Origin: Candidatus Pacearchaeota archaeon
GTDB lineage: Archaea > Nanobdellota > Nanobdellia > Pacearchaeales > GW2011-AR1
Assembly: GCA_018304055.1 (NCBI GenBank)
Contig: JAGVWY010000001.1
Coordinates: 1-41,797 of the forward strand
Length of the DNA stretch: 41,797 nucleotides
Direction: 5' to 3'
The notes below the pieces were generated by a model that saw nothing but the letters and a program-made list of their open reading frames with translations, was not told the DNA's origin and ran no database searches. The position numbers and the translations under genes were made by a program. Shown here in pieces: positions 32,676-35,666 of the stretch. The stretch's first letter is position 1, and each line of letters opens with the position of its first letter.

Positions 32676-34289
32676 TTAAATTATAATCGCCTCAGTTCTC
32701 CTATCTTTTTTTTCTTCATAACTTGTAACTAGCGCCTCTGTTGTTAAAATTAATGAAGCAATTGATGCAGCATTTTGTAACGCAGTTCTTACTACCTTTG
32801 TCGGATCAATAACTCCTGTTTTAAATAAATCTTCATAATTGTCAGTTTTTGCGTTATAACCAAAATTTTCATTTTTTTCTTGTTTTATTTTTGTTATTAC
32901 TTCTGTTTCTTCCTTTCCTGAATTTCTTGCTATTTGTCTTAATGGTTCTTCTAATATTCGTTTAACAATAATTTCTCCGATTTTTTGATCTTCCCCAACA
33001 TCAGAGGTATTTAGAACTTCTTTTGCTCTAAATAATGCAACTCCCCCTCCAACGACAACCCCTTCTTCTACTGCTGCCTTAGTAGCATTTAAAGCATCAT
33101 CAATTCTCATTTTCTTTTCTTCTAATTCAGTCTCTGTAACTGCTCCAACTTTTATTACTGCTACTCCTCCCCCTAATTTCGCCAATCTTTTCTTTAATTC
33201 TTCTTTTTTATAATCAGAATCTGCTTTTTTTATTTGAGCGTCAATAAGTTTTTTCCTTTTTTCAATTGAGTTTTTATCGCCCTTTCCTTCAACTATTATT
33301 GTTTTTTCATTATCAACTAAAACTTTTCTTGCACTTCCTAAATATTCATCTTCAAATTCCTCTAACTTCATTCCTTTCTCTTCGCTTATTACTTTTCCTC
33401 CAGTTAAAACTGCTAAATCTTCTAGCATTTCTTTTTCTTCATCACCAAAACCAGGAGCTTTAACAGCACAAACTTTAATTGCTCCTTTTATAAGATTTAT
33501 AATAAGAGCGGCAAGAGCTTCTCCTTCAACATCATCAGCTATAATAAATAATTGTCTATCTTCTTGAGCAATCTTTTCTAATACTGGAATAATTTGTTTC
33601 ATACTGCTTAATTTTTTATCAGTTATTAAAATATAAGGATTTTCTAACTCTACTATCATTTTTTCATGATTAGTTACCATGTAAGGACTGATAAATCCTT
33701 TATCAAATTGCATACCTTCAACTAGCTCTAATTCTGTTTCAATGCCTTTTCCATCTTCAACTGTTATAACACCACTACTTCCAACTTTATCCATAGCTTC
33801 TGCTATTAACTTTCCTATTCCAGCATCATTATTAGCAGAAATTGTAGCAACTTGGGAAATCATTTGTTTATCTTTAACAGGAACACTTTTTTCTCTAAGA
33901 TGAGAAACTATTTTACTAACAGCAAGTTCAATCCCTTTTCTTACTTCAATAGGATTAGCTCCCGCAGTAATATTTTTCATGCCTTCTTTAATCATTGCTT
34001 GTCCTAATAACACAGCAGTTGTTGTCCCATCTCCAGAATCATCTTGTGTTTTAGTAGCTATTTCTTTTATTAACTTAGCCCCCATATTTTCAAATTTATC
34101 TTTTAATTCAATTTCTTTAGCTATTGTCACACCATCATTAGTAACTAATGGCGTAGAACTTTTGTCAAGAACAACATTTCTTCCTTTAGGGCCTAAAGTA
34201 ACTTTAACTGTATTTGCAACTTTATCAACTCCTTTAATTAAAGAGTTTCGCGCATCTTCTCCAAACATAATTTGTTTTGAATCTGTCAT
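32676..34289 (-). CDS. groEL: chaperonin GroEL (group I, Cpn60)
   Basis: [41 protein letters not shown] and GGGVALF. About 537 aa, without a C-terminal GGM tail. Start taken at ATG 34289 (MTDSKQI). Confidence 0.95.
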
Positions 34290-34290
34290 G

Positions 34291-34689
34291 TTACAATAAC
34301 CCCTCAATACATTTATTCATTTTTATTCTTCTTCTCAATTTACGTTGATAAAAAGTTAACTCGGTTGTTATTGTAAAGGGTCTATCTTGAGGATTTGTAC
34401 AGACTTCAATTTTAACTGTGCCGTCAAAACTTGGAACATAATACATTGCTACTTTTTTTTCTGCGTTGAAGGGGGCTCTATAAACTATCTCTACTTTTAT
34501 ACCTTCTATTTTACTTTTTTCTTCAATAGAACGCGTCATTTGTTCATACCAATCTCCACAAATTGTAATACCATCTTTATTGCTATCAACATCTCTGTAT
34601 CCCATCAAAACAGGATATCTACCATATTGATATTTAGTTCTTTCTTCTTGTATTTGTTTTGTTTCCATTTTAAATAAAATGTTCTCCAT
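34291..34689 (-). CDS. hypothetical protein (third ORF between groES and groEL)
   Basis: Track ORF. Its stop at 34291-34293 is 1 nt from the groEL ATG. Alternative start ATG 34668 (METKQIQ), 1 nt after the upstream stop. No motif recognised. Confidence 0.65.
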
Positions 34690-35032
34690 ATAATTTATTG
34701 AAATAAGATTGAGTTTCTTTTACTGGATGCCTATTACCATCCCACCCAAATCCAAAGGCAGTAAAACCATGGTCCATGCCAATACATAAATATTCTAAAA
34801 AACTTAATGGGTTGTTATTTGTTCCATTACCTAAAAATGAATGTGATGTATTTTCCCTAGCTAACCTTGTAAATGAATCTACTATTTTCCTATAATGCTC
34901 TTCGTCTTGTGATTTAGCAAGTATTTGTAAAGCTCTTCCTAGATTTGCAAGCCTTACACTATAAACATTTCTATAACTTTCAATTTCTTCTGCATAATTT
35001 CTTGCTTGTTCAGGTGTTTCAATTTTTTCCAT
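34670..35032 (-). CDS. hypothetical protein (second ORF between groES and groEL)
   Basis: Track ORF. Its ATG shares nt 35032 with the upstream stop (TAATG). No motif recognised. Confidence 0.65.
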   Translation of the reverse strand: MEKIETPEQARNYAEEIESYRNVYSVRLANLGRALQILAKSQDEEHYRKIVDSFTRLARENTSHSFLGNGTNNNPLSFLEYLCIGMDHGFTAFGFGWDGNRHPVKETQSYFNKLYGEHFI

Positions 35033-35400
35033 TATTTTAATAAGTCATCTAAATATTTAATTGTTTTTTGTCTTTTTTGTTTATCTTCATTATAAATTTC
35101 TAAGTATACTTCAAAAGCTCCTAACTTTAAATTGACTGACGTATCTAGGATTTGATAGATTAATACATTGGGATACCCAAACTCAGAATTAAAAGACTCA
35201 TGTATTTTAGGTAAACCTGCAATAATAAAAGCTTTTTGAATACTTCGGTAAGTATTTCCATTTATATCTCCAGGGAGACCTATGCGAGTTGCATAATCTT
35301 TATCATCTTTAGTTAAGTCTTCAATGCCTATTATTTTATACATTCCAAGTTTTCTCTCTACCCTTGGAACTTCCTCAACTGTTCTAGTTTTTACCATCAT
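35032..35400 (-). CDS. hypothetical protein (first ORF between groES and groEL)
   Basis: Track ORF. Its ATG overlaps the groES stop (ATGA at 35397-35400). No motif recognised. Confidence 0.65.
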   Translation of the reverse strand: MMVKTRTVEEVPRVERKLGMYKIIGIEDLTKDDKDYATRIGLPGDINGNTYRSIQKAFIIAGLPKIHESFNSEFGYPNVLIYQILDTSVNLKLGAFEVYLEIYNEDKQKRQKTIKYLDDLLK

Positions 35401-35666
35401 TCAATCCTCGCTAAAATATCTTTAAATTCTATAATTAAATACTTTACTCCATCTATCATAAATTCGTCTGATGAGTATCCTCCATAAAGTATTCTATCTC
35501 CTTTTTTTAAAGGCATTGCACCTTCTTTTAAAATTCCAACTTCCTCTACAATAGCCTGTTTCTTATCTTCTCTTGCTTCTTCAGGAATAAATATTCCGCC
35601 TTTTGTTTTTTCTTCTGCTTTTATTGGCTTTATTAATACTCTTTCACCAATTGGTTTAACGTTCAT
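35397..35666 (-). CDS. groES: co-chaperonin GroES (Cpn10)
   Basis: MNVKPIGERVLIKPIKAEEKTKGGIFIPEEA...GDRILYGGYSSDEFMIDGVKYLIIEFKDILARIE. This is the canonical GroES pattern including the mobile-loop region. Confidence 0.9.
   Translation of the reverse strand: MNVKPIGERVLIKPIKAEEKTKGGIFIPEEAREDKKQAIVEEVGILKEGAMPLKKGDRILYGGYSSDEFMIDGVKYLIIEFKDILARIE

Follow-up and report, generated by a model that had tools for sequence, protein, structure and literature searches.

In the archaeal operon described here, the chaperonin genes groES and groEL enclose a set of small open reading frames (ORFs). We consider it probable, at about 0.6, that this insert is a passenger cassette that is swapped by recombination and expressed by translational coupling within the chaperonin operon. 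The locus lies in the window, that is, the whole stretch of 41,797 nt of DNA that was analysed. Slot gene content differs between lineages of a Candidatus Woesearchaeota (DPANN) clade. In the proposed arrangement, the cassette slot between the two chaperonin genes of this clade would always hold one gene of the ORF120 family and, depending on the strain, zero to two unrelated orphan ORFs, which in the window would be ORF122 and ORF132. The original prediction had left the choice between accessory factors or adaptors, dedicated clients and a hitch-hiking cassette. The last of these is favoured here, in the narrower form of a variable slot whose contents are exchanged by recombination. The guess of a DPANN host was right, the source being an archaeon of Candidatus Woesearchaeota.

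The adjacency of groES and groEL is among the most conserved gene pairs in prokaryotes. In the window, groEL does not directly follow groES, and the gap of 1,107 nt between them carries three ORFs (one to three in relatives). The order on the minus strand is groES, ORF122, ORF120, ORF132 and groEL, and all five ORFs were confirmed. groES (Cpn10; 35397..35666, 89 aa) is recognised by Pfam PF00166 (5.2e-23) and by NCBIfam GroES models (E as low as 1.2e-34), and groEL (Cpn60; 32676..34289, 537 aa from the ATG at 34289) by TIGR02348 (1.8e-238; 792 bits where the cut-off is 582) and by PF00118 (7.9e-77). No phage GroEL is more than 58% identical to this one. The locus resembles canonical groESL in that both genes are bona fide, share a strand in ES-then-EL order and have a single promoter-like element ahead of groES, but it differs in that the genes are 1.1 kb apart, with three chained ORFs between them. 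Bacterial-type GroEL/ES have been reported in Woesearchaeota, Pacearchaeota and Methanosarcina, with no insert reported (PMC8204110).

Re-examination bore out the earlier description of ORFs of 122, 120 and 132 aa wedged between the chaperonin genes with tight junctions throughout. The TGA of groES overlaps the ATG of ORF122 as ATGA (35400-35397), and ORF122 (35032..35400) has one nucleotide in common with ORF120 (34670..35032) in the sequence TAATG (35032). The ORF120 stop codon (34672-34670) is followed by an A and then by the ATG at 34668, forming a TAAAATG junction, and the TAA of ORF132 (34293-34291) is followed by a C and then by the groEL ATG at 34289 (TAACATG). An alternative ORF132 start, the ATG at 34689, would give the protein of 132 aa and a 20-nt overlap with ORF120. 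The true start is probably the ATG at 34668, for a protein of 125 aa (34291..34668), as this codon is favoured by the alignment with a homologue (MPETQQIQ versus METKQIQ) and by most gene calls on other contigs.

These ORFs could in principle be artefacts, whether through mis-assembly, through the frameshifting of one gene into pieces or through chance ORFs in a spacer, and the very few database homologues of ORF122 and ORF132 point that way. Nevertheless, this explanation is hardly credible and can be regarded as refuted. From 35800 to 32600, ten independently assembled contigs (JGI, ENA, Logan) are 100% identical to the window; this excludes an assembly chimera at 34290 or 35400, a weakness that the original prediction had allowed for, and it also means that population pN/pS is not computable. 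The frames are open in diverged relatives, where dN/dS falls between 0.3 and 0.6 (0.30-0.51 for ORF122, 0.39-0.58 for ORF120 and 0.41 for ORF132, compared with 0.03-0.18 for groEL and 0.11-0.14 for groES), so that the lack of purifying selection that would have spoken against real genes was not seen. Furthermore, in 54 clusters the relatives of ORF120 stand as separate proteins with a length of about 120 aa, and the three insert proteins are unrelated to each other. The three insert frames are coding.

The GC content is about 0.30 and flat over the region. A shift in amino-acid composition had been claimed for the three proteins and is real, with more R (6.5 versus 4.9%), Y (6.5 versus 4.3%) and T (6.3 versus 3.7%) and less K (8.2 versus 10.6%), but its size is modest, and the codon usage and GC3 of the insert ORFs are native. 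That the proteins carry no recognisable motif also held, as Pfam, NCBIfam, PHROGs and PADLOC all gave no match.

The insert does not behave as one unit, as the original prediction had treated it: only ORF120 is conserved and belongs to a wider family, while ORF122 and ORF132 come and go. The window reads ES-122-120-132-EL. In the relatives, each of which is denoted here by an L number, the order is ES-122-120-EL in L001+L020, ES-120-132-EL in L002/L003, ES-120-EL in L005+L004 as well as in L019, and ES-120-104aa-150aa-EL in L021. A scan of metagenomes added one partial locus, a scan of GTDB representatives recovered only one Woesearchaeota contig, and a scan of viral contigs found no relatives.

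ORF122 is a strain-restricted orphan and a likely accessory passenger. Its only homologues found are copies in the same slot that are 84-89% identical (P0002/L001 and L020); it is absent from L002, L004/L005, L019 and L021, and it has no family, PDB or phage match. ORF132 is likewise a presumed accessory passenger, an orphan restricted to the clade. It has one homologue, 51-55% identical and at the same position, in L002/L003, and is absent from L004, L019, L020 and L021; a search of a database of 5.8 billion proteins returned only ORF132 itself, and its single-sequence AF2 model is unusable (pLDDT 36). Searches of phages by tblastn with both orphans gave nothing meaningful. The possibility that ORF122 and ORF132 are diverged paralogues of ORF120 was rejected (hhalign probability 0.1), and comparison also rejected the ORFs of 104 and 150 aa of L021 as homologues of either orphan.

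By contrast with these orphans, ORF120, the resident core gene of the slot, is by profile similarity a member of a real, previously undescribed and fast-diverging family of small proteins that is restricted to DPANN. Word-indexed searches found one or two relatives per ORF, and the ORF120 family becomes visible only by exhaustive profile search. With ORF120, that search gave 54 representative clusters at E<=1e-3, of which 30 reach E<=1e-10. ORF120 of the window matches the seed profile at 5.8e-57 and a profile of 45 sequences at 1.4e-44, and has the traits of the family, namely a length of about 112-135 aa and the motifs PLSFLExLCxGxDHGF and TQxFFxxLYGxHF. Among 45 members there was no consistent Pfam match and no PDB sequence match. 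The AF2 model predicts an all-alpha protein of seven helices (pLDDT 89.1, pTM 0.84). Foldseek, which had been proposed as a check, was run on this model and found no match in PDB (best E 1.1, TM at most 0.40) or in BFVD (E around 1). Along the protein, conserved segments (residues 1-13, 35-57, 74-87 and 103-119) alternate with variable ones, and the blocks of low pLDDT (residues 61-70 and 91-100) match two of the three variable segments. The variable segments have a pN/pS of 0.5-1.06 and are near saturation, and no dN/dS above 1 was detected.

The family as a whole is not intrinsically tied to chaperonins. In six of six lineages, whose GroELs are 71-99% identical, the close homologues of ORF120 (44% identity or more) are flanked by groES and groEL, while distant homologues (below 40%) are so placed in none of the five contexts sampled. 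The latter have unrelated neighbours, such as TldD/PmbA, an MBL hydrolase or a GAF-cyclase, or none. Homologues that never accompany groESL had been named as a finding that would count against the original idea, and in this respect the outcome is divided, as the idea holds for close homologues and fails for distant ones.

Evidence for exchange comes from the alleles of ORF120. In a comparison of six alleles only, all on short contigs, ORF120 of the window is 45-56% identical in amino acids to every other allele, whereas the corresponding GroELs are 71-99% identical. The alleles are 37-64% identical to one another, in a pattern incongruent with the relationships of GroEL, and an identity of about 50% is found irrespective of how far the flanks have diverged. 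For instance, ORF120 of L004 is nearest to that of L019 (62%), though the GroEL of L019 is only 72% identical; the GroELs of the window, L004 and L020 are 95-100% identical. In L020, dS is 0.18 for groEL and 0.20 for ORF122 but 0.66 for ORF120.

The limits of the exchanged segments can be placed closely. Ahead of the start block, 1,678 bp of L001 and L005 agree at 99.94%, and past it the two diverge at once; L004 and L020 show no difference over the 282 bp that begin 48 nt before the TAAAATG junction. The swapped segments measure 692 and 315 nt in two haplotypes with flanks that are 99.9-100% identical; haplotypes B and C each combine two contigs that come from different samples, and single contigs span each breakpoint. 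The left block is the 13-nt sequence ATGATGGTAAAAA (35388..35400, minus strand), which overlaps the groES stop (ATGA) and forms the start of ORF122 in the window and of ORF120 in haplotype C. The right block (34666..34711, minus strand) is the conserved 3′ block of ORF120, ending in [IY]*, together with the TAA-A-ATG junction; over six alleles its mean nucleotide identity is 0.95 (0.88 at third positions), and TAAAATG is identical whether ORF132 or groEL comes next. Judged from these alignments, the slot has been swapped by recombination, with the shared 13-nt start block and the conserved 48-nt 3′ block as breakpoints. No terminal repeats other than captured gene starts occur at the boundaries, nor is there an attC-like structured site, as the junction RNA or DNA folds no better than shuffled sequence (z from -0.9 to +0.7).

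The accessory ORFs themselves seem to carry a trace of how they were accommodated. The first 30 nt of ORF122 match those of the L004-type ORF120 at 23 of 30 positions, and the first 30 nt of the L002 copy of ORF132 match the start of groEL at 19 of 30, whereas null pairs average 11.6 and never exceed 18 (561 pairs in the case of ORF122). On this nucleotide evidence, the start of each accessory ORF copies the 5′ end of the gene that it displaces downstream.

Expression of the insert would depend on the operon in which it sits. A candidate archaeal promoter, the TATA-like box TTTAAATA (35715..35722, minus strand), is found some 50 nt ahead of the groES ATG, after a BRE-like stretch rich in A. 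Together with about 100 nt of its surroundings, the box is kept in L001 and L005 despite differing upstream neighbours. The box is the sole minus-strand match to TTTAWATA between 32676 and 35800, and the count of this motif over the whole window is not above chance. No TATA consensus was found on the minus strand inside the insert, and T5-T6 runs are present within ORF120 and ORF132 (34833-34837, 34797-34802 and 34350-34354). We infer a promoter role for the box, and this single conserved element may drive one transcript of the whole operon. As a separate observation, toxin-antitoxin modules are exchanged in the neighbouring slot, the one between TrmB and groES, where the window has HicAB and L001/L005 have VapBC.

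With junctions that overlap or leave a 1-nt spacer, all cistrons would then be translated by termination-reinitiation coupling. Shine-Dalgarno-like motifs precede the starts: GAGG in the 3′ end of groES, just upstream of the start block; GGAG at 34687-34684, within the conserved 3′ block of ORF120; and GAGGGG within ORF132, 10 nt upstream of the groEL ATG. The 3′ block of ORF120 is a candidate re-initiation region for the next cistron, and RNA structure there is not significant (z from -0.3 to -0.9). Because this block carries both GGAG and TAAAATG, the downstream cistron, and ultimately groEL, would stay translatable under any cassette. Coupled polycistrons with ATGA or TAATG overlaps are well known, for instance at the junctions of the E. 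coli trp operon. The window is similar in its stop-start overlaps or 1-nt spacers at four of four junctions and in having Shine-Dalgarno-like motifs in the upstream cistron, but here the coupling is a prediction from sequence.

Flexible gene cassettes or ‘morons’ and hypervariable islets, in which small genes sit in conserved operons and are bounded by conserved sequence, offer another parallel. They share with the slot small, often orphan genes on a resident transcript, recombination at conserved boundaries and presence or absence at the level of strains. The groESL slot differs in that it has no evident mobile-element machinery, promoter or terminator of its own, that its boundaries are coding ends and coupling junctions (the blocks of 13 and 48 nt), and that its host operon encodes an essential chaperonin. 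A further case is that of Cellulophaga phage phi38:1 and related virioplankton contigs, where gp006 (90 aa) lies between Cpn10 (gp007) and GroEL (gp005) (PMC5649160; NC_021796). There too the gene order is canonical, and groES and groEL tightly enclose a short uncharacterised ORF; that locus, however, is viral, has a single ORF and has no described swapping of cassettes, whereas the window belongs to a cellular archaeal genome. By hhalign (probability 0.1) and blastp (E above 5), gp006 was rejected as a homologue of ORF120, ORF122 or ORF132.

Several other explanations of the insert have to be weighed against that of a swapped passenger cassette. One is that ORF120 is a lineage-specific cofactor or adaptor of the chaperonin, whose helical core docks GroEL or GroES and whose variable loops pick or exclude clients, possibly viral ones; a translationally coupled position between the two chaperonin genes would fix its stoichiometry. 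The constancy of its position in all six lineages of the subfamily, the nucleotide-level conservation of the coupling junction and the alternation of conserved and variable segments agree with such a role, and two distant members have a weakly proteostasis-flavoured context, one preceding a TldD/PmbA protease and another lying 4 kb from GrpE. Nevertheless, GroEL and GroES are of the canonical kind and hardly vary between strains with ORF120 alleles of only 44-53% identity, the five sampled contexts outside the clade are unlinked to chaperonin genes, and the near-invariant family residues C83 and H88 are missing in some groESL-linked alleles. Moreover, ORF120 resembles no known co-chaperone or cofactor family (J-domain, TPR co-chaperones, prefoldin, sHSP, GrpE) by sequence or fold. 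A cofactor thus appears unlikely, if still the strongest competitor. More doubtful is the bolder proposal that ORF120-family proteins are modular specificity factors of GroEL/ES, with a conserved helical core that docks the chaperonin, hypervariable loops that recognise or block clients, such as viral capsid proteins that need GroEL, and alleles whose diversity and exchange between strains are maintained by an arms race; if true, the slot would be the first case of an ‘adaptor cassette’ inside a chaperonin operon that is polymorphic and exchanged by recombination.

It is about as doubtful that the insert is a conflict module (defence, anti-defence, immunity or addiction) or a selfish mobile cassette lodged in an essential operon, where it would be hard to lose. 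Polymorphism in presence and in alleles between otherwise identical genomes would fit this explanation, as would the orphan nature of the insert ORFs and the exchange of HicAB and VapBC modules in the adjacent TrmB-groES slot. By contrast, no match was found in PADLOC (0 families for the three insert ORFs and the two ORFs of L021), PHROGs, or phage or viral collections, the 35 ORFs scanned in the window include no integrase, transposase, reverse transcriptase or homing endonuclease, and terminal repeats are lacking apart from the captured gene starts. Codon usage is native, and ORF120 stands alone in the simplest haplotypes (L004/L005 and L019), so that it is not half of an obligate two-gene toxin-antitoxin pair. 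The operon layout, with its implied co-expression with the chaperonin, could also suggest that the ORFs encode dedicated, obligate GroEL clients beside their folding machine. This is very improbable: typical obligate GroEL substrates are aggregation-prone alpha/beta proteins of roughly 20-50 kDa, whereas ORF120 is confidently predicted as a small all-alpha bundle, family members elsewhere have no chaperonin neighbour, and the orphans are dispensable between strains.

For the preferred reading, that of a swapped cassette, it is less certain that the insert genes are passengers exploiting a strong, constitutive and stress-inducible chaperonin operon, and not core chaperonin subunits. Counting against the passenger view, ORF120 keeps its position down to 71% GroEL identity in reduced genomes, which could mean a functional link to the chaperonin. 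The swapping of alleles points, again with less certainty, to a variable role, possibly specific to a conflict or a partner, in which a conserved helical core carries divergent surface loops.

In general, these observations indicate that the clade has long been tolerant of a gene slot inside groESL, and that this slot is a hotspot of strain-level variation. They suggest that new or orphan genes can arise or lodge when they take over the region where translation of a resident gene begins, leaving an essential operon undisturbed. The clean breakpoints give a rare view, at the level of sequence, of homologous cassette exchange in uncultivated DPANN populations. Finally, a new DPANN-restricted protein family is defined, with a confident fold model unmatched in PDB, and since it is apparently co-expressed tightly with a bacterial chaperonin gained by lateral transfer, a chaperonin- or conflict-related role becomes testable.

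The operon lies on the minus strand, where groES (35397-35666; Cpn10 at 5e-23) and groEL (32676-34289; equivalog TIGR02348, scoring 792 bits where the cut-off is 582) are, judging by these profile matches, bona fide chaperonin genes. Between them were called ORF122 (35032-35400), ORF120 (34670-35032) and ORF132 (34291-34689, or 34291-34668 from a second ATG), named by their length in amino acids. Along the chain groES/ORF122/ORF120/ORF132/groEL, the junctions read ATGA, TAATG, TAA-A-ATG and TAA-C-ATG, all four as the original prediction described them. It had also recognised nothing in the three proteins, and Pfam, NCBIfam, PHROGs and PADLOC were indeed blank for each. 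GC is flat across the region (~0.30), and the codon usage and GC3 of the insert fall inside the range of 23 other window genes. Since the 3.2-kb operon stretch is 100% identical in ten independently assembled contigs (JGI, ENA and Logan data), the assembly chimera considered in that prediction is excluded. In addition, purifying selection acts on each of the three frames, with dN/dS of 0.30-0.51 for ORF122, 0.39-0.58 for ORF120 and 0.41 for ORF132, compared with 0.03-0.18 for groEL. With a chimera ruled out and the frames under selection, it is hardly conceivable that the insert is an artefact.

The simplest model for this operon would be a single transcript with coupled translation, because a TATA-like TTTAAATA, itself preceded by an A-rich stretch, is found ~50 nt before the groES ATG, no second minus-strand match to this motif occurs inside the operon, and there are GAGG or GGAG motifs ahead of the ORF122 and groEL starts. 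The TATA-like element belongs to a ~100-nt block conserved in two related loci, L001 and L005, despite different upstream neighbours. T5-T6 runs inside ORF120 and ORF132 could attenuate transcription. Between groES and a divergent 52-aa ORF, which is located upstream of hicB/hicA, there is a perfect 14-nt inverted repeat, TAGAGAGTTTTGAA-N11-TTCAAAACTCTCTA (35842-35880); a perfect 24-nt palindrome (35988-36011) overlaps the start of the 52-aa ORF, and a second hairpin occupies ~35790-35835 in the groES upstream region. These elements could be operators for HicB or a chaperonin regulator; Rfam matches in the region were sub-threshold and attributed to chance. The space between a TrmB regulator gene and groES holds a HicB/HicA toxin-antitoxin module in the window (36192-36642) and a VapB-like/VapC (PIN) pair in L001 (633-1276) and L005 (1166-1809), the groES promoter block being common, and we regard it as a second swappable slot adjoining the operon. 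At the other end, a 158-aa Cys-rich ORF (six Cys; 32185-32661) without a Pfam match is convergent with groEL, their stop codons 14 nt apart; it is kept in clonal contigs, and in the related locus L021 an unrelated 197-aa ORF on the same strand follows groEL instead.

The three insert ORFs are not equivalent to one another, and pairwise comparison rejected them as mutual paralogues. ORF122 has near-identical relatives only (84-89%), each directly after groES. ORF132 has a single database relative, 51-55% identical and in the same position in L002/L003; in L002 (CAZRUQ010000104.1, an NCBI MAG contig), the C-terminus of this gene and its exact groEL junction are unreliable, because a run of N at ~880-900 falls near its 3′ end. 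ORF120, for which an initial search gave two relatives, belongs to a family of 54 representative clusters in an exhaustive profile search (30 at E≤1e-10). These are proteins of ~93-153 aa with the common motifs PLSFLExLCxGxDHGF and TQxFFxxLYGxHF, other members being named as Nanoarchaeota or Pacearchaeota MAG proteins. An AlphaFold2 model from the family alignment is confident (seven helices, pLDDT 89.1, pTM 0.84) and had zero structural matches in PDB and BFVD (best E about 1); the family profile likewise had none in Pfam or PDB sequences.

All close ORF120 homologues that were found, those with at least 44% identity, sit in the gap between groES and groEL, but with varying companion ORFs. 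With the window's GroEL as reference, ORF122 and ORF120 fill the slot in L001+L020 (two contigs joined into one haplotype; GroEL 99% identical), ORF120 alone in L005+L004 (95-97%), ORF120 and ORF132 in L002/L003 (85%), ORF120 and ORFs of 104 and 150 aa in L021/L022 (76%), and again ORF120 alone in L019 (71-72%). ORF120 alone is the simplest and most widespread form, which argues that it is the resident and that the remaining ORFs are later additions. The two orphan ORFs of L021, from the only species-representative genome with a related locus, a Woesearchaeota archaeon (942-1714, between ORF120 and groEL), are unrelated to ORF122 and ORF132; the 150-aa one has a hydrophobic N-terminal segment. 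Co-occurrence with groESL, on which the original prediction depended, holds for these close homologues and fails for distant ones (<40% identity), none of which is near chaperonin genes in five contexts. For instance, a distant member stands directly upstream of a TldD/PmbA-family gene with a 46-nt gap (L016, 136-2085), and another follows an LSM gene, 43 nt upstream of an MBL-fold hydrolase (L025, 5001-6329). A third overlaps the stop of a GAF-adenylate/guanylate cyclase gene, with a convergent TrmB, and GrpE 4 kb away (L029, 2412-4375). Two are counted as solitary, one before a 77-aa ORF (L024, 5001-5654) and one near a nucleotidyltransferase and a transposase (L027, 4001-4387). No shared partner gene is apparent among the five.

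ORF120 alleles are 37-64% identical pairwise, independently of flank divergence. In L020, dS is 0.18 for groEL and 0.20 for ORF122 but 0.66 for ORF120, with 53% amino-acid identity. Among the window, L004 and L020, GroEL identity is 95-100%; the closest allele to the L004 ORF120 is that of L019 (62%), though the L019 GroEL is just 72% identical. Divergence is mosaic: the N-terminus, residues 35-57, residues 74-87 and the C-terminus are conserved, and the three variable segments between them have ~42-50% nucleotide identity, two of which coincide with low-confidence loops of the model. What we consider the decisive case for cassette behaviour is a haplotype pair. On the left, a 1,678-bp stretch that covers VapBC and groES is 99.94% identical between L001 and L005 up to ATGATGGTAAAAA, the left breakpoint, which lies 13 nt inside the first ORF of the insert. 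On the right, L004 matches L020 at every position (100%) for 282 bp, from 48 nt ahead of the ORF120 stop-start junction into groEL. The swapped segment is 692 nt in one haplotype (ORF122 and a DYKL-type ORF120) and 315 nt in the other (a DGNQ-type ORF120 alone). Contig joining did not create this pattern, as single contigs span each breakpoint. The last ~46 nt of ORF120 plus TAAAATG show 95% nucleotide identity across the six alleles, and 0.88 at third positions; this holds even between lineages with saturated groEL synonymous sites. This block includes GGAG, makes the junction to whichever gene comes next and contains no significant RNA structure; its conservation fits a constraint on both coding and re-initiation, repeated homogenisation by recombination, or the two together.

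The accessory ORFs begin like the genes that follow them. ORF122 has the same start codons as the L004-type ORF120 (MMVK…; 23/30 match over the first 30 nt), and the L002 ORF132-like gene starts like groEL (MPETQQI vs MPDSKQI; 19/30), compared with a mean of 11.6 and a maximum of 18 among 561 pairs of unrelated window gene starts; the extra L021 ORFs show the same tendency weakly (17-18/30). From these matches we conclude that each newcomer went in immediately behind the 5′ end of the resident gene downstream. In doing so it duplicated the resident's initiation region, which leaves the chain of coupled starts unbroken.

The genetic architecture is well supported: groESL contains a slot whose content is swapped by recombination, its resident belongs to a new DPANN family, and the orphan ORFs are added on. 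As for function, we favour, at a probability of roughly 0.6, passengers that use the chaperonin operon for expression and have a variable, possibly conflict- or partner-specific role, because groES and groEL hardly vary between strains whose alleles differ strongly, the ORF120 family is unlinked to chaperonins elsewhere, and the add-on ORFs are dispensable. The main rival, ORF120 as a chaperonin adaptor or cofactor, draws on the long-term retention of its slot position and on the conserved coupling junction, but it seems unlikely. Less likely still is that the insert is a conflict or selfish module, and that its ORFs are dedicated chaperonin clients is very improbable.

The window encodes an archaeal-type CCA-adding enzyme, TrmB regulators, SerRS, a class II ribonucleotide reductase (RNR), thioredoxin, thioredoxin reductase and two tRNAs, and it is part of a cellular genome. 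The RNR, in 24692-28549, is unusually long (1,109 aa, GTG start) and lies directly downstream of a bacterial-type NrdR repressor (Zn-ribbon and ATP-cone), with thioredoxin and then thymidylate kinase after it; since its barrel domain covers just residues 323-860, additional domains or an insertion may be present at the ends. In 8887-10334, an AbiEii-type nucleotidyltransferase toxin (PF08843, 8.6e-28), overlapped by a preceding 235-aa ORF without a Pfam match, probably forms with it an AbiEi/AbiEii type IV toxin-antitoxin pair. A 369-aa protein with a C-terminal Schlafen/AlbA_2 domain (17777-18886; 1.5e-22) and the following 434-aa ORF, also without a Pfam match, may be a defence-related pair.

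GroEL/ES have been described in Woesearchaeota and Pacearchaeota, in a report that does not mention operon interruption (PMC8204110). The architecture has a precedent in Cellulophaga phage phi38:1 (compared via NC_021796) and in related virioplankton contigs, which have a single short ORF between Cpn10 and GroEL (PMC5649160). The phage ORF is unrelated to the insert ORFs, and no phage GroEL is more than 58% identical to that of the window. The embedded slot is so far limited to one DPANN clade. What is new here is a polymorphic cassette slot embedded in a canonical groESL operon, together with a new protein family. The interruption of groESL, and the clear-cut signs of cassette exchange and 5′ capture, are both surprising and testable.
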